The notes beneath the pieces are model-generated. The model was not told the DNA's origin. It made no database searches and saw only the letters and a program-made list of their open reading frames with translations. Below, piece after piece: positions 1 to 21,920 of a stretch of DNA of 24,039 bases. The stretch is from a virus (taxonomy: Duplodnaviria; Caudoviricetes): the IMG/VR virus record IMGVR_UViG_3300031566_000364, positions 1 through 24,039 of that record; one strand, 5' to 3'. Both the position numbers and the translations under genes were made by a program. Position 1 is the first letter of the stretch. Each line of letters begins with the position of its first letter.

Positions 1-850
1 TATCCTCTATCACATCGCAACCCTGCACGGCGTATTCTAGAGTAGCCCCCCCATAAATCCCAGGTGTCTTCTGCGTCATCACATACCACTCAACGGTGCG
101 GGCCACGGTATCATCCACCTCGACCTGCTGCGTCTTGCGCGCCCTATTGCACATCGAATGCCAAATGTTCGATGCTTCGCATTGCGTCGTCGCCGTGGCA
201 TTAAAAGCCACCGCCGCCGATTCGTGCCATGTGTCCGCGTCCCAGGCAGCAGCAGCGGCCGCCTCGGCGGCGGCGCGGTTGGGCTCGGAAACGCCCTGCC
301 CCTGTCGATACGCCGGATCCACTATCGATATTGCGTCGCCGTCCAGGAGTTGCCATATCAGCATGTTCAGGGCCGTCTGGATATCGTACATGATCCAGGG
401 GCCGATGATGTCACCCGCCACGGCATAGCCACCTGGCGAGATATAAGCCGGATCCGCCCAGTCCGTCCAATCGGTGGGGATAGTCGTAACTCGGCGGAAC
501 CCAGTATACTCGCCTCCACCACTCACGGCCTTTATCAGGTTGGCGGTCGTCCAAACGGGGATGGTTGTCTCACCGTCATAGTAATCGGCGGCGCGGGGCG
601 TCCCGTCGAGATCGTGGGACTGCACCCAATAATGTAAGGTATCAAAGATCCACTTTTGCAGGTCGGCCCATCCCATCCGACCTGCGGCGTGTGTTAGTGT
701 CTGTGCGATGTCCCCGGCAACCGGCACCGACTTCGCAGCCTCCCCAAGGACCGTCAAGCGCTCGTTCCAGGCTCCGACAAACTCAGTGGCATTGAGGACT
801 CTATTGAAAGGCGTCGTGCCCCAGCCAAGACCTGTTGTTGTCCAACTCAT
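1..850 (-). CDS. Putative tail-tip/minor tail protein, 3' end truncated by the window edge (>=283 aa; not in the supplied ORF track)
   Basis: ATG at 850 overlaps the TGA of 847..1851 (ATGA). Manual translation is open to base 1: MSWTTTGLGWGTTPFNRVLNATEFVGAWNERL...GDIIGPWIMYDIQTALNML...EYAVQGCDVIED. Function inferred from position only. Confidence 0.8.
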   Translation of the reverse strand, partial: MSWTTTGLGWGTTPFNRVLNATEFVGAWNERLTVLGEAAKSVPVAGDIAQTLTHAAGRMGWADLQKWIFDTLHYWVQSHDLDGTPRAADYYDGETTIPVWTTANLIKAVSGGGEYTGFRRVTTIPTDWTDWADPAYISPGGYAVAGDIIGPWIMYDIQTALNMLIWQLLDGDAISIVDPAYRQGQGVSEPNRAAAEAAAAAAWDADTWHESAAVAFNATATTQCEASNIWHSMCNRARKTQQVEVDDTVARTVEWYVMTQKTPGIYGGATLEYAVQGCDVIED

Positions 851-1851
851 GGGCCAACGAACCTCACATAGTCCCAGACCGCCACGCCGCCGATGATGGT
901 CAGGACTTGATAGTTTGTAACTGAACTTTCGGTGATGGTATGTTTATAGACGCCACCACCAACATCAGTGCCGATGACGACTGTGTTCGCAGCAGGTGTC
1001 TTGGCTAGTGTGTCAGTGTGAACACCAGCGTTTAGGAGTGTGTGTGTTTTGACGCCACCGAAAGACAGCCGCACAACAGCCCATTTTAGGCCAGTACCAC
1101 CCTGGATCAACAGGATCTGAGCAGCTCCTGTGACCCCACTTGTGAGATAATCACGCTCATTGTTAGTGACGTCAGCAAAGTCGTGGTCAGTACTCGTTAC
1201 ATTGATCTTTACCGGGCAGACACCGGCAGCGTAGCCGGAACCCTTTGCTCCACTTAGAATGTCCTGTGCTGCTATCACAAATAATCCGGTGTGAGCGGCC
1301 GTTGTCGGAGTTATTCCGGAAATTGCTACACGGCGTTTGAATTCTGGAAGATCAGCTGTGGGGTCAACTATGGCGGCATCAATACCGAGGATTTGACAAG
1401 CAGTAATGTTGACACCGCTAGTATTTTCGATAAGAATAGTATGGGAAAGTTCAGTCGGTCCTACTATTACCCCTGCAACATTGTAGTCGTCTTCAGGATG
1501 CGGGATGTAACGGAAAATGGTATCGGTACTCGCCTCCGATATTAGTCCGCTGATTACGTCGTCTCCAGTACTCCCAGTATACACCACTATATTGAACAGG
1601 TCTGCATTGGCACTGTAATATGCTCCATTCCTGTCGCACTCTCTCAGTGTCAGCGTGTTCCCACCAGTGTACGCCGCTTTCGGTCTACCGAACCGCACGT
1701 CAGGATCCTGTGGGGTATGGTAGGTACCCATTGGACCAGACTCAACACCCTTTCCTGTCGGTCTGCCGTGGAAAATCGTATCAAGCAAATCGTTGTAGTC
1801 AGTTGCCCTTATTCTACTCTTACCGGCGATTTTTCTAGTTAGCTTAGCCAT
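847..1851 (-). CDS. Putative minor tail/tail-tip protein (334 aa)
   Basis: Second gene after the tape measure; G/T/A/V-rich and beta-structured; C-terminal HTLLNAGVHTDT segment resembles a fibre motif. Function inferred from synteny. Confidence 0.65.
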   Translation of the reverse strand: MAKLTRKIAGKSRIRATDYNDLLDTIFHGRPTGKGVESGPMGTYHTPQDPDVRFGRPKAAYTGGNTLTLRECDRNGAYYSANADLFNIVVYTGSTGDDVISGLISEASTDTIFRYIPHPEDDYNVAGVIVGPTELSHTILIENTSGVNITACQILGIDAAIVDPTADLPEFKRRVAISGITPTTAAHTGLFVIAAQDILSGAKGSGYAAGVCPVKINVTSTDHDFADVTNNERDYLTSGVTGAAQILLIQGGTGLKWAVVRLSFGGVKTHTLLNAGVHTDTLAKTPAANTVVIGTDVGGGVYKHTITESSVTNYQVLTIIGGVAVWDYVRFVGP

Positions 1852-2613: not shown

Positions 2614-5199
2614 TTAGTGTCCCCAGACGGCATTTCCGATATTAGCGATTACTGTGTCTATTGCACGACTGACTTCTTTGGCAATCTCGCTTAACAGATT
2701 CTTTGATTCTTCGATGTTTCTTGCCTGTTGTTCCGGTCCCCACTTACCTTTTGTTTCCTGGACTCCCTTTGATTGCATTAACAGCTTCCCACGCATGCCG
2801 AAGAAGACCCCACCAGGTGTGACGTACCGCTCACGAGCAAACCTATCGGTAACGGCTTTCAACTTGCGCTCATACTGCAGCGATTTCTTGATTCGTTCTT
2901 CTGTATATCCCCATCGCAGAGCCTCAACCCGCACCCAACGGTCAAGTTTGGCCCGTTCGATTTCTTCCTCTGTGTGGTCAAGTTCGTACAGTCTCCAAGC
3001 AGAATCAATGTACCACTTTCTAATTTTATTGGCTTCAGTTGTAGCATCCTTTATACTACGTTTCAACCGCTTGTCATCTTCCTCAGCAGACAACCTCGCG
3101 GTCTCTGCCAACTGGTCTTGTTCTATTCTTCCAATTGACTGTATTAAAGCGCGGTACCGCAATCCCATCTCATAGCGGTCAGTTTCCAATCTTGCACGCT
3201 GTTCACCGAGTTTTTTGTACAACTGGGACTCGTGTCTCAGACTAGCACTACTTTTAGCAAGATCTGTCAGTTTCTCATCATAGTAAGTGCTCCATGCTTC
3301 CCTTTCCTTATATATTCCAAGTAACTCCTTATCCGTTGATTCACGTACCATGGAGAGTTCTTTTTCATGTTCCGACATACCGATTCTGGCAAGGTTATAA
3401 CGAACAGCATGTAACCTTTCGGCGAACAGGAGCTTTTTCTTATCGAGTTCTAATGTCACCTTTTCAAAGCGTGTTTCAGCGTCCACTGCCATCAACCGGT
3501 CTTGTTCATATTTCAGCGCGGTTTTCAATGCTTGTACGCGGGTATTCAGGTAAACTCCCTCGGATGCGTAACCGGCTAATATGGCATCAATTCTAGCCTT
3601 TGATACATCTGTTGTTTCTTCGTATCCTCTCATTCCTTTGAAAGCCAATTTTTTCTCTTCAATAGCTTCAGCACGGAGCTCAACCTCTTTGAGAAGGCGA
3701 AGTAATTGCTCCACTCTTGTTGTTGCCTTTGGTCCGGCCTGCAATTCCCCGAGTTCCCTCATAGCATTGGCCGCTTTTTCCATGTGTTTGCCGGTTTCCT
3801 CTGTTACTTCTTCAAGTTTCCTCATTATCACCATTTGCTTGTTTGCATACCAGCCGATGGCAGCAAGCCCGATGACAAGAACAGCAAGGGTGGCTGAAAG
3901 TGCAACAGTGGCGATTTTTGCGATAGTGGCTGCTGCTGCTACACCTTTCCAAGCAATAGCTATCTTTGTGAGCAGTGCAGAGATACCCAACTTGGCAAGA
4001 GTCCAACCAAGAATTTTCCACCCAGCCGCAAAGCCAACTAGCACAAGAGTGATTGACGTAATCCATCCTATTATTGACTTTGTTCTTTCTGGCAAAACTG
4101 TTACGCCCTTGGCAAACATCTCAGTACCTTCGAGCGCAGCCTTGACAGCTGGCAGATAACTTTCTCCGATTTCTCTTGACAAAGCGCCAATAGACTTTGT
4201 CAACTGCATAACCCTGAATTGCGCTGTGTCTTGTACTATTGCCAACTTTTCCGTTGTTAGTCCGGCTCTTTCCTGCATATACGTCAAGTCTGACAGATAG
4301 CCCTCGTAGTTCTTTATCAGGGCTGCTACTGCGCGGTACCCACGGATAGTTGGAACAATTTGTCCGAGCTGCTCAGCAGTCGCATTTTTGAGGAGTTCTA
4401 GTACTCCGGTAAGACCGAGCACTTGCAGTGTCTGCTGGTTCATCTGCATGCCGAGATTCCTACCGGCTTCTTCCGTCGATCTGAGCGGACGCATAAAGGC
4501 ACGGAGTAATCCAACCAGCGCCGTCATAGCTCGCGGTGCCCTCATTCCGGTACGAGTGATCGTTGAAATGGCAGCGCCAAGTTCCTCAAGACGTATTCCA
4601 GCCATGCCTGCAGACGGAGCAATAATACCGACAACTGGAGCCAGTTCATCCATCGTGACTTTGCCGCGGCGAACGACAGCCCATAACCAGTCAGATATGT
4701 CGCCGGCACGAGTAGCCGCCATAGCGTAACTATTCAGCATCGTCGTAATGGCATCACCAGCAATTTGAACCGATGTGAAGCCGGAGACTGCTAGCTTACT
4801 GGCTTGTGTGAGTACATATAGCGACGTTCCCACCGGAACCATGGCTGACAGTACATCGTAAAGGGCCCGTGACATTACTTTGGTAGATTGGGCAAAGTCA
4901 ACAGACAGCTGTTTGACCCTGTCTGACAGCTCCCTCATAAGTATTAGTTCTTTACGCTCTAGTAAGGTTGCCACCATGGCCATCTGGTATTCAAACATGG
5001 CCGCTGCCGTTGTCGTAGCAGTGATAGCTGTGACCAATCCAGAAAAAGCAGCAATCCCAGCCGCTTGTATCGCGGTCATCACCTTCGGGTTTTCTTTGAT
5101 GAGCTTGTGTAGTGAATCCCACTTTTGTCGGAAGACTGTGTCTTTGAGGCCTACCTCGATGTAGACTCCACCGATTTTTTTGTCTCCGCCTTCAGCCAT
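2614..5199 (-). CDS. Tail tape measure protein (TP901-like core), 861 aa
   Basis: N-terminal IGGVYIEVGL; helical core (ALYDVLSA..., GKVTMDELA..., LEELGAAISTIT..G); central hydrophobic Ala/Leu/Ile segments; C-terminal coiled coil; follows the tail chaperone genes. Confidence 0.93.
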   Translation of the reverse strand: MAEGGDKKIGGVYIEVGLKDTVFRQKWDSLHKLIKENPKVMTAIQAAGIAAFSGLVTAITATTTAAAMFEYQMAMVATLLERKELILMRELSDRVKQLSVDFAQSTKVMSRALYDVLSAMVPVGTSLYVLTQASKLAVSGFTSVQIAGDAITTMLNSYAMAATRAGDISDWLWAVVRRGKVTMDELAPVVGIIAPSAGMAGIRLEELGAAISTITRTGMRAPRAMTALVGLLRAFMRPLRSTEEAGRNLGMQMNQQTLQVLGLTGVLELLKNATAEQLGQIVPTIRGYRAVAALIKNYEGYLSDLTYMQERAGLTTEKLAIVQDTAQFRVMQLTKSIGALSREIGESYLPAVKAALEGTEMFAKGVTVLPERTKSIIGWITSITLVLVGFAAGWKILGWTLAKLGISALLTKIAIAWKGVAAAATIAKIATVALSATLAVLVIGLAAIGWYANKQMVIMRKLEEVTEETGKHMEKAANAMRELGELQAGPKATTRVEQLLRLLKEVELRAEAIEEKKLAFKGMRGYEETTDVSKARIDAILAGYASEGVYLNTRVQALKTALKYEQDRLMAVDAETRFEKVTLELDKKKLLFAERLHAVRYNLARIGMSEHEKELSMVRESTDKELLGIYKEREAWSTYYDEKLTDLAKSSASLRHESQLYKKLGEQRARLETDRYEMGLRYRALIQSIGRIEQDQLAETARLSAEEDDKRLKRSIKDATTEANKIRKWYIDSAWRLYELDHTEEEIERAKLDRWVRVEALRWGYTEERIKKSLQYERKLKAVTDRFARERYVTPGGVFFGMRGKLLMQSKGVQETKGKWGPEQQARNIEESKNLLSEIAKEVSRAIDTVIANIGNAVWGH

Positions 5200-15324: not shown

Positions 15325-16494
15325 TTAGACCTTGATCCCGTCGATGATGTCGAACTCCGCCGGCTGGCGGACTATGCAATCGACGCGCATGATCGCACGG
15401 ACCCAGGTCTGGTCATACTTGAAAGAGTCTCCGCCAACGTCAGTGGCGACGATCTCGATCGAGTCCTTCTGGCCGATCAGGAACTCAGTCCAGTTTCCGA
15501 GGATGCCGTAGGAGCAGGAGGTGCCTACTCCGCACGTTCTGTTCGTCGGAATCTGGGTAGTCCATCGAACTGGGAAGCCAAGCAGGGCATCGTCGATACC
15601 CTTGGCAAGGTTCCCGAGCTCCAACAGATACCGTCCGGCGCCGTCTTTCAACTGCCTGAGGGTGTTCTTCGTCCTCGGGTTGAAGACCCATCCGGTATAC
15701 GTTCCATTAGCCAGTTCGATGACGCTCATGGCGTCCAGCAGGTCGTCGTAGGTCGGCTGAGCGCCGTTTCCGCCGCCGAGAATGGTCGTGGAGATACGGG
15801 CATCGTTCAGGATGCCAAGCGGCTGCGTGCCGCCAGCTCCCTGGATGAACACGAGATCTTCAGCCAGTTGACAGGCCGTTACGAGGTCCCTCTTGATGAT
15901 GTCGTCAGCAGCCGGCGAAGCGTCTCTCAGCAGAGAGTTCTGAATCGGAACAAGGCCAAGGGCCTCTTTCAGAACGAGCTGGTTCTGCTTGAACGTCGGT
16001 TGTGACTGGACGGACGTAGCGTCGGTGCCTTCGGCTACCCACGTAACCGTCGCGCCGGTGGCCTGCCCACCGATGAGGAGCGTGTCGCCCTTCATGTTGT
16101 ACGTCGACGGGTTCAACCCGCGGACCACGGCCTTCGCTCGCAGCAATCCGATGAAACCGGAGGAAACTTCCGGCGGAACCAGGACGCCGCCGGTGCCCAA
16201 CGTCTGCGAGGACAGTGCCTTCCTGAAAAACCACTTCTCGAGCTTCGCATCTGACCAGTCGCCGGATTTTACCCCGCGAATGTACTTGGCGATCGAGAAA
16301 TAGTTTTTGATCTTGTTTATCGATGGGCCACGCCACGGGGCATCGGAACTGGAACCCCCACGTGACTTGCGCATCGACTTCGCTCGCTTGCTCGGAGCAA
16401 GCCGTTTTTCAACGCGGCCAGAGACATAGGCAGACAGCCTCTTTTGGCGCTTGTTTCTTGCCTTTCTTGCGGCTCTTAACAATGGTCTTGGCAT
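15325..16494 (-). CDS. Major capsid protein, HK97 fold, 389 aa
   Basis: GGVLVPPEVS..FI..LR, TWVAEG, WVFNPRT...LRQLKDGAGRYL, LLGFPVRWTTQIP, ILGNW and SFKYDQTWVRAIMRVD motifs; GC-rich codon usage. Confidence 0.97.
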   Translation of the reverse strand: MPRPLLRAARKARNKRQKRLSAYVSGRVEKRLAPSKRAKSMRKSRGGSSSDAPWRGPSINKIKNYFSIAKYIRGVKSGDWSDAKLEKWFFRKALSSQTLGTGGVLVPPEVSSGFIGLLRAKAVVRGLNPSTYNMKGDTLLIGGQATGATVTWVAEGTDATSVQSQPTFKQNQLVLKEALGLVPIQNSLLRDASPAADDIIKRDLVTACQLAEDLVFIQGAGGTQPLGILNDARISTTILGGGNGAQPTYDDLLDAMSVIELANGTYTGWVFNPRTKNTLRQLKDGAGRYLLELGNLAKGIDDALLGFPVRWTTQIPTNRTCGVGTSCSYGILGNWTEFLIGQKDSIEIVATDVGGDSFKYDQTWVRAIMRVDCIVRQPAEFDIIDGIKV

Positions 16495-16521
16495 TCTTAC
16501 ATCCGATCATTCAGTTGCGGA

Positions 16522-17259
16522 TTAGGTTTTAACCTCTTCCTCTTCGTCTTCGTCTTCCTCTTCGGACTCTTCGCTGGCGGCCTCCTCGTCTTCGAGGTCT
16601 TCCAGCGACTCTTCCTCATCCTCACTGTCGTCGGCTGACTTCTCCAGAAGACCGAGGTCGTCCAGAGTATTGTCTACGGCGGAGTCAATGAGTTCGTCGA
16701 GCTCTTTCCGAGTTAGTGAGATTCGGTCGTCGTCGAGAGAGCGTTTTGCTTTCTTAACGACCTTCAACTTCTTCGTCACCCTTTGCTTCTTCCCCTTGGT
16801 CCCGGACAAAGCGCTCTTCTCGAGCTTCTTCTCCAAGCCTTCAAGGGCTTCGCTGATCTCAGAAAGTTGCTCTCTGTCTTCGTCCGAGAGTTTCACAGTT
16901 GTGGACTTTTTGCCTGTCGGCATCACGAAGCCGTCGCCGGCAGCTTTGGTCAGGACCCCGATCGCCTTTTGGAGATTGTCAGGGAAGTCGCCGAAGTACT
17001 TGCACAAGACTCTGACAGCCTTCTTCAACGATGACTGTTCAGTCTTGGGAACATCAGCTTTTTCCATTCTCTCGACAAAATCCTCCGGAGCATCGTCTCC
17101 GCAGAGTTCAGTCAGGCCTTTTACCAGTTCCTCGTTCATTTTGTTACCTTTCCTTTTTATTACACTGAAATGTCGATTTGAAGCAGGTTCGTCAACAAGA
17201 GAAACTTCCCAGACAAACATGTGTTCCATTTCAACGGGCTTTTTCGGAATCTTTGCCAT
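16522..17259 (-). CDS. Scaffold-like protein carrying the terminal protease strand (EVSLVDEPA) at its N-terminus, 245 aa
   Basis: Position before MCP; charged helical body with an acidic C-tail; N-terminal VWEVSLVDEPASNRHF; internal ATG at 17139 preceded by AAAAGGAAAGG. Confidence 0.8.
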   Translation of the reverse strand: MAKIPKKPVEMEHMFVWEVSLVDEPASNRHFSVIKRKGNKMNEELVKGLTELCGDDAPEDFVERMEKADVPKTEQSSLKKAVRVLCKYFGDFPDNLQKAIGVLTKAAGDGFVMPTGKKSTTVKLSDEDREQLSEISEALEGLEKKLEKSALSGTKGKKQRVTKKLKVVKKAKRSLDDDRISLTRKELDELIDSAVDNTLDDLGLLEKSADDSEDEEESLEDLEDEEAASEESEEEDEDEEEEVKT

Positions 17260-17343
17260 TCTTAATCTTTTCGTTAAAATGTTTGGAGTTCGAGGAAGCC
17301 CTTCTCTTGCGGTCAGAACGCATCGTTTGATCGCCCGACGCTA

Positions 17344-17375
17344 TATAATTATACTCCGGGAGAGTTCATTGGAAA
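17344..17375 (-). promoter_or_regulatory. Candidate sigma70-like promoter for scaffold/MCP
   Basis: Minus strand TTTCCA-16 nt-TATAAT in the only large (169 bp) gap of the operon. The -10 lies within the palindrome TATAATTATA (17344-17353); the -35 is weak. Confidence 0.4.
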
Positions 17376-17428
17376 CAAAAAAGTCACTGGAAAATTGAAA
17401 CATTTTATTCCGACGGAAATCAAAACAT

Positions 17429-19141
17429 TTATTCCGATCTTGAAGCCAAACCGGCCATAGAGAATCCGGTGATTTCTTCGTCGATAATGGCCTGCCACAC
17501 GTCAGGGTCACGAACGCGGACTGACAGCCACCACGCACCTGCCGGAATAAGAGTGCCCTCTTTATGCGTGTCTTCGCCGGCTTGGAAACATTCCAGAACG
17601 CAACAATTTAGTGGCTCCTCGTGATTCAATCGGATGAGCTGTGTACTCTCCATAAAGCTGAGCATTCCCTCAGTAATAGCTTCCGCTGTGGCATACTCTC
17701 CGTGAGAGTCTACTTCATTGGGAGCGTATACTATCCCGCTGACAATGTGTTGTGCGCTATTCGACTTCTGTATCTCGAACCGGAGTTCGCTGGAGGTCGA
17801 TTTCTTTGTCGCGACTTCCAGATTAGTTTTGTACTTGTGTTCCTTGAGCCACTTTCTCGCTTGTTCCGGTGTGAACTTACTGGCAGAAAACCGTATTGAT
17901 TGGATCTCAGTTTTCTGGTCGCTCGTTATACCCCAGATGACGTGAATACCGGGACCGAATTTGTTGTTCTCACGTCGGAATCTTACGTACTTGCTCGGCG
18001 GATTCTGCCTGGCAGCATGTTCGTTTGGGAACGGCTTCATAACAAGGTCGAATTCTTTGTTTCCTGCAGCGCTCTTTTTTTTACCAACGATTAGAGCGTT
18101 GCCGTTGAATAGATTGGACACCGTATAAGTGGCGGCATCCAGTTCCTTCAGTTCCCCGTCAGATAGCCCGACTTCGCAGCCAACGTCGTCCCCTTCTACC
18201 ACTTCCGTGACGGCCACGACACCGGACTTGGCGACTCTCATCATCTCTGCCAACGCCTTCCCACGGTCCTTGGCGCGAACAAGAGAGTGCTCAGCTACGA
18301 CGACGTCGAAGGAGTTGTCTTGGAAACCGAGCTCTTCTATGAATCCAAGAGAAACCTTGAGTCCCTTTTGTTTTGCCATTTCAACTGCGACAATGTTGTT
18401 GTCGGTGCCTACTACCTCACTTGCGGAAACCGATCGCAGAATCGGGAAAATGCGACCCGGACCGCAACCAACTACCAATACCGTTACCGGGTTGAATCCC
18501 TTGACGGCCTTCGACAACGCAGCCCCATCGTGGATTCGCGACAGTGTCCACTCTTCAAGTTCCTTATAGTGGCGGAACTGTTCATCTGCTTCAAAACCGT
18601 CCGGCCGGTCGATTTTACCGGTGCGTGATTTTGCTCGGAGGACCAGGTCAAATACCGGGATGTGCGGAGAGTACGGACCGGTTGGATTATACATGAAGGC
18701 GGTCTTTTTCTCTACTTGGCTGCGAATTGATTTGGAGACCTTTATTTCCATTCCGGGATTCTCGTGCTGACTCTTTACGACGATGTCTACGACACCGGCC
18801 TCATCTGGTTGAGAAAAGAACTCGCCACAGATTGAGATGTAATCCGGTACTAGTGTGACGTCGCCGAAGGCTGGTACGTCTATCCCAACCATTGTCTTGT
18901 GGAACAGCGACAGATCGATTGAGCCTCTTCTTTTGACTGATAGACCCCTTGCTGACAGCTCCTTCGCTACCAATTCATAGCGGTCAAGTATTTCGGACCG
19001 CGAGAGACCGCCCACTAGCGGGATCCCGATGCTCTTGCGGAAATTCTTGTTCCAAACCTGAATGAATCGCAGTCTAACAGAAAAGAGGTCTTTGTCGCTC
19101 AACGTCTTCAGGTTGTCGCGCTCAATGTCTTCAATGTGCAT
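17429..19141 (-). CDS. Multidomain protein: N-terminal unknown/NTase-like domain, class I SAM methyltransferase, PNEHAAR domain, XkdF-like prohead serine protease (570 aa)
   Basis: MTase: VLVVGCGPG, VVGTD, EELGFQDNSFDVVV, KALAEMMRVAK. Protease: IVSGIVYAPNEVDSHGE, IRLNH, IPAGAWW..VRV.D..VW..I....ITGFSMAG. Located between portal and scaffold. Confidence 0.88.
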   Translation of the reverse strand: MHIEDIERDNLKTLSDKDLFSVRLRFIQVWNKNFRKSIGIPLVGGLSRSEILDRYELVAKELSARGLSVKRRGSIDLSLFHKTMVGIDVPAFGDVTLVPDYISICGEFFSQPDEAGVVDIVVKSQHENPGMEIKVSKSIRSQVEKKTAFMYNPTGPYSPHIPVFDLVLRAKSRTGKIDRPDGFEADEQFRHYKELEEWTLSRIHDGAALSKAVKGFNPVTVLVVGCGPGRIFPILRSVSASEVVGTDNNIVAVEMAKQKGLKVSLGFIEELGFQDNSFDVVVAEHSLVRAKDRGKALAEMMRVAKSGVVAVTEVVEGDDVGCEVGLSDGELKELDAATYTVSNLFNGNALIVGKKKSAAGNKEFDLVMKPFPNEHAARQNPPSKYVRFRRENNKFGPGIHVIWGITSDQKTEIQSIRFSASKFTPEQARKWLKEHKYKTNLEVATKKSTSSELRFEIQKSNSAQHIVSGIVYAPNEVDSHGEYATAEAITEGMLSFMESTQLIRLNHEEPLNCCVLECFQAGEDTHKEGTLIPAGAWWLSVRVRDPDVWQAIIDEEITGFSMAGLASRSE

Positions 19142-20567
19142 CGGCCTTTGTCCTTTTATTTCGCTTCCTACGCCGTGTCAACACGCGTACATTATTCTCA
19201 GTCCGCTTGGCCAAGTTCTTGTTTGCGGTATCTTCGTCTGTGTTCCCGTTCTTGCCGGCAGTTTCCTCGTTTCTTACATTCGGCGGCAAACCGGTACCGC
19301 TAGCAGCCACTACCGGTGACATCGGGATTGTTGTCAACTGCTTGGAGATGTAAAACTGGTCGCCATCCTTGTACGGCTTGAGACCCTTGAACTTTCTAAC
19401 CTCATTCGGAGTGAGCACCCCATGCTGTATATCGGCGTTGTGCATGCGGCTCATCTTGACGGGGTCACCCTGGAGAAAGGCGTCCAGCTCATAGCCGAAA
19501 ATCAGTGAGTTGTCCCTAAACTTCGGAATAAGCTCGCGGTTGAGAACGTCGCGAATCATGAGGAGCTTAGGCACCATCGTATCGCGATGGAACGCAGTTT
19601 CTTGCAGCTCGTAGTTCGCGAACTTGGCGTAGTCCAGTAGACCGACTTTTACCGGCGGTACCCCAAACACGCTGAGAATCTCCTCGCGGTTGAGACGACG
19701 CAGAAGGAGCAGTTCCATGTCCTTTGTGCTTAGTGCAACAGGAGAATACTTCATGCCGCGAGGAAGTATGGGGGTCTGGTGGGAACCGGAAGGCCCGGTG
19801 AACCAGCGTCGCCAGTCAGAACGAAGGCGCTTAAGTTCCCCGCGACTCAACGGAAAGTCGGTTTCAAGTACCCCTGTGGGGGTGCCACCGTGTTGAAAGA
19901 AGTCCTTGTTGTAAGACGCTGCATACTGTTCAGTGAGAATTGTCTCGGTGGCAGCTTGAATACTGGACTGACCGTGCCAGTCATTGTTCGGGTTGAAATA
20001 ACGGAAGTGTATGATGCTCCGCGGGAGAAACTTACACTTGTAGGTTCCAATCTTAAACGTGTACGACGTGATCCTTTTGCGGTCCTTCGACGTATTTATC
20101 GACATCCTTGACGGCCTCAACGGCCAAATCTCCGCCGGAATGCGCAACCGATTGTATACGATTTCCCAGTAAACCTCTCCGCACAGTTCGAGGTAGATCA
20201 GGGAGACTTCTATGAGATCACGCCACGACATATTCGGATTCGGTCGATCAAGAAGAGTCAACAGGTCGTGGTCCATTAACTCTTCTTTACCGGTTTTCAC
20301 CCGACGATAAAGATGTATCGGTATACCGGAACCAGTCGATGCAATAGCGAAGACACAGCTGTATACCCACACTACTGACTGGTAAAGCGCGATGTACTCC
20401 GCAGCATCTTGCGGCGGTGCGATCTCCGTTCCGCCAAACAAGCTTCCGATAATCACTGGGAGAGTCTGCGACCGCTTGGCAATCGCTATTTGCGTTTTCC
20501 TTGTTGATTCGAGTTCTCCGGCAGTTGTTATACGAGCACTCTTTCTCGTTAACTTACCCACTGTCAT
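19131..20567 (-). CDS. Portal protein (HK97 family), 478 aa
   Basis: WVYSCVFAIA, LLDRPNPNMS, LELCGEVYW, IIHFRYFNP..DWHGQS, FFQHGGTPTGVL, ILSVFGVPP and GVLTPNEVR motifs. Confidence 0.97.
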   Translation of the reverse strand: MTVGKLTRKSARITTAGELESTRKTQIAIAKRSQTLPVIIGSLFGGTEIAPPQDAAEYIALYQSVVWVYSCVFAIASTGSGIPIHLYRRVKTGKEELMDHDLLTLLDRPNPNMSWRDLIEVSLIYLELCGEVYWEIVYNRLRIPAEIWPLRPSRMSINTSKDRKRITSYTFKIGTYKCKFLPRSIIHFRYFNPNNDWHGQSSIQAATETILTEQYAASYNKDFFQHGGTPTGVLETDFPLSRGELKRLRSDWRRWFTGPSGSHQTPILPRGMKYSPVALSTKDMELLLLRRLNREEILSVFGVPPVKVGLLDYAKFANYELQETAFHRDTMVPKLLMIRDVLNRELIPKFRDNSLIFGYELDAFLQGDPVKMSRMHNADIQHGVLTPNEVRKFKGLKPYKDGDQFYISKQLTTIPMSPVVAASGTGLPPNVRNEETAGKNGNTDEDTANKNLAKRTENNVRVLTRRRKRNKRTKADAH

Positions 20568-20585: not shown

Positions 20586-21920
20586 CTAGACAAATTGAAT
20601 ACGGGAAAGCATTCCGGCGGAGGCAAACAGCATCATCAGAGCGTCAGCTTCATCCGGGCTCTTTATCCCGCGCTTTTTCAAATCTTTCTTCGATTCAATC
20701 TGTGTTGTCTTGTCACTGCGTATTAGGTACTTAATCGATGTTAGTTGTTTCTTGAGATTGCTATCATTCGGCAACCGCATTTTGTCTTGTTCCAAGCGGA
20801 GACGTATGGCCCAGTACCCTTCAGCTCTGCGATTGAAGAACTTGTAGGCGTCATACGGCGTGTTGCCGCCCTTGAATTCCTCTACCGGATAACCGAGTTC
20901 ATCCAATCGGTCATAGACACCGGCACCTACTCCGAGAGAATCGACAACGATGATTGACGGGTGAAAACTATTGGCTGTTGCAGCAACATCTGCAACGACT
21001 TCCATCGTGTTCCCCCTCGGAAACTTCTGGAACTGGTAGACCCAATTACCCCGCCGTTTTCCGATGACTGTTTGGTTGGCTCCAGAGCGCGCCACATCGA
21101 CAGACATTACTCGGGGGCCCTTGTGTTTTATGTTGCCGCCGCTTTTCTTTTCCATTGCCCGCGTTACCCAGAGAGCGGAAGCAATTTCATTACCGGATTC
21201 TGTTTCATCCCAGTTGCCCTCCAAGTACCGATTGACCCAGTCCGCCGGGTAGTTCCGACGGAGGCCGGCAATGTAGTCTGCTGGCAACGCCAAATTATCC
21301 GATGGCAGTGCTTGCACAAACCGGTGGTCTGGAATGTTTTCAGCGATAAAGCGGTCCCTAACCCAACCGGGCTCGGGATTAGCCGTCAACAACCCGCGGT
21401 AGTATGGACGCGTACCGTCTGGAAGCACGAGGTCAAGTCTCGACATCAGCAAAAGGAAGATATCCTCCGTAACCTCGGTAGCTTCTTCAATCCCGAAGAA
21501 CCCGAGAGTAAACGACTTGATGCGCTCATACGGCTTTTCGACCTGTGTCGGCTTTACTCCGCCGTAGTACAAAATTGACCCATTAATAAATTCGATGTAG
21601 TGTTCCGTCTTGTGCCAGGTACTAATCAACCTGGGATCAAGAAACTGGCCAAGTGTCACCAGCGTGGTTCTCTGTAAAGAGGTAAGTTCGTAGCGACAAA
21701 TGAATCCGACGTTCCCAGGGTACTCTAGGCAAAGTTGAATTGCCTCGTTAACAAACCAAACTGATTTGCCGGCGCGCATGCCGCCGCCGAAAAGGACATA
21801 ACGTTCGGGAGCTCGATGTGCCAACTGTTGCTTTGGATACGGTGTGTACCGTTTTGTCAGGTCCAATGTTGTCCCAGATTCTACGCCCTTTCCGGCGGCT
21901 TTGTACATCGTCGGGCTCAT
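20586..21920 (-). CDS. terL: Terminase large subunit, 444 aa
   Basis: PYPKQ adenine-binding motif, Walker A GGGMRAGKS, Walker B FFGIEEATE, coupling motif LTANP, nuclease motifs VDVARSG, VVDSLGVG and SPDEADAL. Confidence 0.97.
   Translation of the reverse strand: MSPTMYKAAGKGVESGTTLDLTKRYTPYPKQQLAHRAPERYVLFGGGMRAGKSVWFVNEAIQLCLEYPGNVGFICRYELTSLQRTTLVTLGQFLDPRLISTWHKTEHYIEFINGSILYYGGVKPTQVEKPYERIKSFTLGFFGIEEATEVTEDIFLLLMSRLDLVLPDGTRPYYRGLLTANPEPGWVRDRFIAENIPDHRFVQALPSDNLALPADYIAGLRRNYPADWVNRYLEGNWDETESGNEIASALWVTRAMEKKSGGNIKHKGPRVMSVDVARSGANQTVIGKRRGNWVYQFQKFPRGNTMEVVADVAATANSFHPSIIVVDSLGVGAGVYDRLDELGYPVEEFKGGNTPYDAYKFFNRRAEGYWAIRLRLEQDKMRLPNDSNLKKQLTSIKYLIRSDKTTQIESKKDLKKRGIKSPDEADALMMLFASAGMLSRIQFV

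Follow-up and report, generated by a model that had tools for sequence, protein, structure and literature searches.

A prohead protease split over two genes in tailed viruses, with a homolog of its post-serine strand at the start of a likely scaffold gene

Introduction

Phage T4 gp21 (5JBL), the HK97 gp4 family (PF04586) and the herpesvirus assemblins (1VZV, 8J3S) share a beta-barrel with a His-Ser pair, and all of them hold the strand that follows the catalytic serine within a single chain. Here we describe a tailed-virus sequence (positions 1 to 24,039 of IMGVR_UViG_3300031566_000364; this whole stretch of 24,039 nucleotides is called the window) in which the same barrel and His-Ser pair are predicted at the end of one gene, gene A, and what sequence comparison supports as a homolog of the post-serine strand opens the next, gene B. 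The third residue of the catalytic triad is His157 in herpes proteases, and in gp21 we take it to be Asp168. To our knowledge, it is poorly understood in most phages what keeps prohead proteases silent before they are inside the prohead. The herpes enzymes are switched on by dimerization, not by a donated strand, according to the available sections of one account (PMC9305915).

Closer relatives of gene A are found among the XkdF-type protease-scaffold proteins (PF14550, PHROG 3017), which include those of Bacillus phages BMBtp14, PBP180 and 0105phi7-2 (gp5) and of Lactococcus phage 28201, and among the one-chain proteins of Methanobacterium phage psiM2 (ORF12), psiM100 (ORF12) and PhiF3 (ORF13). 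The available passages on polyvalent proteins (Iyer et al. 2017, PMC5512222) describe cargo domains joined to an assemblin-like peptidase that is always C-terminal; a missing strand goes unmentioned in those passages, and neither "permut" nor "XkdF" is found in the main text. What was known already comprises the fold, the family and the peptidase's place at the C-terminus of polyvalent proteins (PMC5512222). The paper on phage RcZahn lists the protease and capsid genes and, in the part available, makes no remark on a split (PMC8601537). No description of a split prohead protease was found in the literature that we searched, and since most subscription papers lay outside the reach of that search, its absence from print is not certain.

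Results

Gene A (17429..19141, minus strand) encodes 570 residues, comprising an N-terminal region, an S-adenosylmethionine (SAM) methyltransferase domain, a BRX-like domain and a C-terminal XkdF-type protease core. The core matches PF14550 (Peptidase_S78_2, XkdF) at residues 456-569 (17435..17776, minus strand; E 2.4e-23, 82.9 bits against a cut-off of 24), spanning positions 4-125 of the 126 in the profile, and contains the invariant residues Asp478, His507, Glu517 and Ser561. His507 (17621..17623, minus strand) is the predicted catalytic base and Ser561, in a GFS motif (17459..17461, minus strand), the predicted nucleophile, by homology to His85 and Ser140 of T4 gp21, which are given as H85/S140 in the available part of a recent report (bioRxiv 10.64898/2026.03.04.709575); both residues are invariant in 119/119 core rows. 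The gene A product ends in ITGFSMAGLASRSE*, with the stop 9 residues after Ser561, just beyond the nucleophile motif as a first-pass annotation of the window had noticed. Because the PF14550 model also ends just past the serine motif, it is blind to the split.

Gene B (16522..17259, minus strand; 245 residues) follows after an AT-rich intergenic gap of 169 bp (17260..17428, minus strand), the GC content of which is 39%, compared with 50% for the window. The motif EVSLVDEPA occupies residues 18-26 of gene B (17208-17182) and belongs to a putatively donated module of residues 1-35 (17155..17259, minus strand) that is closed by a conserved Lys35. All three minus-strand frames are closed within the gap, and as 169 is not a multiple of 3, genes A and B lie in different frames; the window therefore has two open reading frames (ORFs), not the one-chain protease-scaffold of the XkdF type. 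The summed spacing from Ser561 to Glu18 is 27 residues, compared with 24 in the one-chain psiM2 protein. The motif, its position beyond the gap and the normal spacing were all as first annotated.

Neither chance nor faulty assembly accounts for this arrangement. At 10 bits, the strand profile matched 0/276 reversed-protein controls and 2/276 reverse-strand controls, and one of the latter two (locus L035) is a real strand gene; the match in gene B is not a chance one. When the window was searched in six frames with a looser pattern, two matches came up, the gene B strand and one on the plus strand, antisense to a tail gene. Contigs from 4/4 sequencing runs, which may be source samples, span the gap without a difference, indel or joint, with coverage whole in two of them (X1 and X4) and over 16602-18487 (X5) and 15465-17694 (X6) in the others. 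The split of the protease over two genes is confirmed as real, and the two ORFs are not joined at the DNA level.

Comparison of profiles supports homology between the gene B peptide and the strand found past the serine in one-chain proteases, since the peptide's profile aligned with their post-serine segment (hhalign 95.5%, E 1.6e-8). In models, the gene A core has the assemblin/prohead protease beta-barrel and the His/GxS serine, and the strand that brings the third triad residue and the oxyanion loop is absent from its chain. An AlphaFold model of the core alone (predicted local distance difference test [pLDDT] score of 87.7) superposed on residues 8-149 of T4 gp21 (5JBL) with Z 9.0 and a root mean square deviation (rmsd) of 2.5 over 108 aligned residues, and on residues 11-125 of the varicella-zoster virus (VZV) protease (1VZV) with Z 5.3. 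The model of the one-chain psiM2 protein (pLDDT 84.9) reached Z 12.2 and an rmsd of 2.3 over 119 aligned residues of gp21 (12-172), Z 9.3 with the VZV protease and Z 7.0 with that of cytomegalovirus. The strand carrying the serine spans 8 residues in the one-chain model, compared with fewer than 3 when the core is modeled alone. With the core model as query, Foldseek listed 5jbl with a probability of 0.80 but an E value of 0.33, no PDB match reached E 0.001, and no solved structure emerged as a sequence relative in profile searches. PF04586 had no match to the core at E 1 and none in a longer contig of the window phage.

Going by these models, the gene B strand is predicted to sit between the His507 strand and the Ser561 strand, and Ser20 would fall on gp21 residue 168 if the last five aligned residues are ungapped. 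A gp21 homolog is reported to have its triad Asp 25 residues after the Ser (PMC5694885, in part), and in the protease of KSHV (Kaposi's sarcoma-associated herpesvirus) the oxyanion arginines are placed 28-29 residues after Ser114 (PMC9305915). By homology, the Pro25-Ala26 loop of gene B is predicted to be the counterpart of the KSHV arginines and to form the oxyanion hole.

The split had been annotated as a peculiarity of the window phage and proved instead to be the usual state of a large clade. We examined 16 GenBank phages from the 69 records matched by the core. In 7 of them (RcZahn, RcTiptonus, Summit, Sonali, Vibrio phage 1, HJ05 and BHU-15) the strand opens a separate later gene, annotated as hypothetical or otherwise, and in one (psiM2) it follows the serine in a single chain. 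It stands at the N-terminus of the chain in the remaining 8, from Bacillus, Lactococcus, Enterococcus, Clostridium, Dulem 37 and HCTV-2, so the permutation that the first annotation ascribed to XkdF-type proteins is real. When the strand profile was applied to the 130 viral loci nearest the window, 95 were split, 10 were permuted and 25 had no strand, several of the 25 being cut by contig ends and two (L114 and L147) having a diverged strand by eye. The RcZahn-like set of 80 loci held 76 split and 4 without a strand, and the 49 genome loci held 8 split, 1 with the strand upstream, 38 permuted and 2 with none. Among 80 psiM2-like loci there were 10 split, 29 permuted, 19 in the usual order (6 of them by pattern) and 22 with none. 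The loci are redundant and were picked by similarity to the queries, so these counts are not frequencies in nature. At the protein level, 133 of the 150 closest representatives end within 20 residues past the serine with no strand in the chain, and the rest comprise 5 permuted, 1 in the usual order, 7 with longer tails and no clear strand, and 4 unclassified.

The capsid gene comes after gene B in 170/187 split loci, and the arrangement persists in small split cores of 114-123 residues that have no cargo (Sonali and vir075). Ser20, Val22, Ala26 and Lys35 of the strand module are conserved at 90% or more; among window-like split loci the closing Lys is present in 98/103 and Glu18 in 97/103. Ten cores that appeared to be orphans were tested. 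For seven of them the contig also carried a strand gene, at a distance of 0.8-7.4 kb, and one of the seven is from a complete 93.5-kb genome in which the strand matched once; the other three, with no strand match, are fragments 13-29% complete. Exactly one strand match was found in each of four whole phage records and in the longer contig of the window phage, and none of these five records (0/5) contained PF04586 or another S78 or ClpP substitute protease.

Other searches returned little. A word-index protein search found the window's own protein only, and single-protein locus scans found only the window phage, or nothing. A tblastn search with the 40-residue peptide gave seven weak records; the one opened runs antisense to a terminase gene and was dismissed as a chance match.

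Residues of the two genes covary. A mean-field coupling analysis of split pairs only (196 rows; effective number of sequences [Meff], 117; 2990 cross-gene pairs) ranked Asn506-Asp23 first (z 6.1) and Ala563-Pro25 second (z 5.9), and Thr558-His30, Arg504-Val22 and Arg504-Ser20 were also in the top ten. The highest z in 16 controls re-paired among near relatives was 3.1, and with all 294 rows the top z was 7.4, compared with 4.2 in 54 controls. The top coupled pairs flank His507 and Ser561, and the covariation points to contact between core and strand, in trans, at the active site. To that extent it favors the proposal, made at first annotation, that the scaffold strand completes the enzyme in trans; contact is the part of the proposal on which the couplings bear. 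Core and strand distances also correlate (Mantel r 0.59, 68 rows, 0 of 999 permutations), as they would from shared descent.

Gene B is likely the scaffold, judged by its position and by the C-terminal halves of one-chain relatives; after the strand it has a Lys-rich middle and an acidic tail. A short form without the strand (16522..17139, minus strand) is predicted to start at Met41, which has a strong Shine-Dalgarno (SD)-like site (at about 17144-17155), and the site at Met1 is weak. A Met with an SD-like site stands 18-44 residues after the strand in 138/187 split loci, compared with 22/183, 19/182 and 18/181 in control windows, although SD-like matches behind the strand are possibly inflated by Lys, Arg and Gly codons. 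Gene B may therefore yield two products, a strand-bearing long form in the minority and a scaffold-only short form in the majority. Short scaffolds made from an internal start are found in herpesviruses (UL80/UL80.5), lambda (C/Nu3) and Mu (I/Z). Gene B has 8 candidate cut sites of the form hydrophobic-x-Lys-(Ser/Ala/Gly), gene A has 6 and the capsid protein 3, and the portal has none; the 861-residue tape measure also has 6, so a reading of them as cut sites is a lead only. The motif scan placed a candidate capsid cut after Lys92, just before the capsid domain. The mature capsid protein of phage 0105phi7-2 is reported to lack residues 1-10, and residue 11 is a Lys (PMC10219371, in part).

The layouts are interleaved on a quick tree (145 rows, 117 columns). 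The starred clade to which the window belongs has 75 split proteins and 2 permuted ones, the starred RcZahn split clade includes a protein of usual order (P0146), and at least 8 changes of layout are needed. The Methanobrevibacter virus vir075 is split with a 3-nt gap, and psiM2, psiM100 and PhiF3 are one-chain; the vir075 branch is long, so its placement is unsure. In a 46-row subset, chosen after the first tree had been seen, a single origin was rejected for the permuted form (p 0.004) and for the split form (p 0.002). Layouts have likely switched repeatedly, with the direction at the base undecided by the tree. The suggestion that the split is an intermediate in circular permutation finds some support here, in the two permuted proteins nested among 75 split ones.

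The window as a whole is a minus-strand tailed-phage head and tail module, from a record that is estimated to be 32% complete and is present in soil metagenome runs. Its order is terminase large subunit (20586..21920, minus strand; PF03237, phrog_2), portal protein (19131..20567, minus strand; PF04860, E 4e-75), gene A, gene B and the major capsid protein of the HK97 fold (15325..16494, minus strand; PF05065 at 102-384, E 1.7e-49), which is the likely substrate. Gene A has the composition of a polyvalent protein: a class I SAM-dependent methyltransferase domain at about residues 220-311 (18209..18484, minus strand; PF08241, E 3.3e-15), likely carried as cargo with the protease, a small BRX-like domain at residues 394-437 (17831..17962, minus strand; PF08381, E 1.7e-6) and PF14550 at the C-terminus. 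A motif similar to the BRX-like domain was seen by eye in gene B of RcTiptonus, HJ05 and BHU-15, which suggests that modules move between genes A and B. Gene A residues 1-220 (18485-19141) are conserved in relatives (P0002, P0004 and L035) with no Pfam family or Atlas cluster match, and residues 1-200 had no usable Atlas match.

Several smaller features were seen along the way. A short direct repeat, two near-copies about 25 nt apart, surrounds the gene A stop (17396-17433), and a sigma-70-like match in the gap (17375-17348) is not conserved among relatives. A conserved promoter in the gap was considered and rejected, -10-like hexamers being present in 13/44 gaps when 15.5 were expected. Gene B and the capsid gene share a frame and are 27 nt apart, with two stops between them (16494-16522). 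At a Campylobacter locus (L276) the strand is upstream in a different ORF and the core is cut short, which looks like a broken permuted gene. Three loci (L057, L064 and L103) have a metabolic-looking block between the protease and scaffold genes, downstream of the core gene, with genes that by eye resemble alcohol dehydrogenase, transketolase/E1 and short-chain dehydrogenase. In RcZahn-type cores (L002, L004, L013-L015 and L017) the C-terminal 80-90 residues form a His-rich repeat domain (GHxH) that is possibly metal-binding. A W-P-S motif recurs in linkers and C-termini of protease polyproteins (P0057, P0081, P0109, P0138 and P0139) and could be a capsid-targeting signal.

Discussion

The account that we consider probable is one in which the scaffold's long form brings its strand to the core; docking there would complete the active site and would also anchor the enzyme and the cargo joined to it. 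Gene A would supply the His-Ser core, and gene B would open with the missing strand, which would dock into the core barrel, completing the active site and tying the enzyme and its fused cargo to the scaffold. If the short form predominates, the number of proteases recruited per prohead would be set by the scarcer long form. The completed enzyme would cut after hydrophobic-x-Lys in the scaffold, the cargo polyprotein and the N-terminus of the capsid protein, and cleavage close to Lys35 would release it from the scaffold. The stronger claim at first annotation, that the enzyme would be active only inside the prohead, is less secure, as both proteins could bind in the cytoplasm.

Several observations weigh against strand completion. 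The core alone gives a confident fold without the strand, and its own invariant acids, Asp478 and Glu517, could take the third place in the triad. Ser20 was assigned to gp21 residue 168 from range ends only, and in the RcZahn and permuted groups Glu18 gives way to Phe, Tyr, Leu or His. For about 140 columns the covariation set has little depth, the control removes shared ancestry only partly, and in the one-chain subset (Meff 38) Asn506-Asp23 ranks only 80th of 2990. Atlas searches named no family for gene B, and no family match was found for its scaffold role.

Some of these points would suit a strand that docks in trans mainly as a hook, loading the protease and cargo enzymes onto the scaffold while the core is largely active alone. 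Under such an arrangement a confidently folded core, its two invariant acids and the lack of Glu18 conservation beyond the window's clade would be expected, as would the frequent cargo in split gene A (in 50 chosen long relatives, 14 with an ATP-dependent ligase, 8 with a class I methyltransferase and 4 with a D12 adenine methylase). However, the best-kept strand residues, Ser20, Val22 and Ala26, map to sites predicted for the triad and the oxyanion hole, the pairs coupled most strongly lie beside His507 and Ser561, and the small cores of Sonali and vir075 keep the arrangement with no cargo to load, and we think a simple hook unlikely. We give considerably less credence to a core that is a dead or self-sufficient remnant, completed for example by self-association or by substrate, with the strand as a leftover of fission in another role. 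No assay of any XkdF-type protein was found in the literature searched, and 3/10 orphan loci lack a strand match, but those three are small fragments, the His and Ser are invariant in every core row, the strand is kept even when it is 7 kb away or on the other strand, and core and strand distances correlate, though shared descent also yields such a correlation.

An ordinary one-chain protease-scaffold, with the two ORFs joined in cis by splicing, ribosome bypass or frameshift, or separated by misassembly, would explain why the summed spacing is so like that of the one-chain form. We find this the hardest of the explanations to credit. Estimated gaps occur in all three frames and measure between -71 and 2392 nt (n = 183; sizes are approximate, as start sites were taken as the nearest upstream ATG, sometimes wrongly, the window gap being called 208 when it is 169), whole genes intervene at some loci, the contigs from four runs contain no variant, and the layout is common to cultured phages. 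In L035, the strand-scaffold gene (95..955, minus strand) is upstream of the portal-protease genes (3419..4381, plus strand) and divergent from them, and in four loci related to it (L091, L116, L136 and L137) the strand gene is 5-7 kb away with unrelated genes between. Given gaps of variable length and frame, partners up to 7 kb off and one on the opposite strand, splicing or ribosome hopping cannot explain the split, and cis joining as a general account is already largely refuted.

Returning to completion by a donated strand, a wider reading can be proposed, tentatively and as a possibility that we would not yet favor. A large and common class of tailed viruses of bacteria and archaea may use a naturally split serine protease as an assembly switch, in which the core has no activity before its active site is completed by a strand from the long, rare scaffold form. 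Such a switch could fix the number and place of the enzyme, load cargo enzymes into the head, and keep free activity from the cytoplasm, where it would be sensed by the host cyclic-oligonucleotide-based antiphage signaling system (CBASS). The split would have arisen more than once and been re-fused into permuted enzymes, and circular permutation would have in it an intermediate that still exists. CBASS can be triggered by the activity of prohead proteases, according to the available part of one report (bioRxiv 10.64898/2026.03.04.709575), and it is a matter of speculation whether a protease gated by strand donation could matter for immune evasion.

A two-gene enzyme makes protease control testable with a 120-residue domain and a 35-40-residue peptide, in cultured phages such as RcZahn and Sonali, whose hosts are harmless. 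The split accounts for the invariably C-terminal position reported for the peptidase of polyvalent proteins and for the end of the Pfam model at the serine, and it gives many "hypothetical" genes that precede the capsid gene a function. The coexistence of usual, split and permuted forms of one enzyme is also a natural setting in which to test whether circular permutation proceeds by fission and fusion.

Among described systems, the XkdF-type proteins resemble genes A and B in their core (31-37% identity), their strand motif, their place between the portal and major capsid genes, and the scaffold-like region that follows. They differ in that strand, core and scaffold succeed one another in one chain, whereas the window has one gene for the core, which forms the end of a cargo polyprotein, and another for the strand-scaffold. 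The psiM2, psiM100 and PhiF3 proteins run core-strand-scaffold in one chain, the same linear order as genes A and B together, and the break point between the two genes maps to the Lys-containing linker of these psiM2-type proteins.

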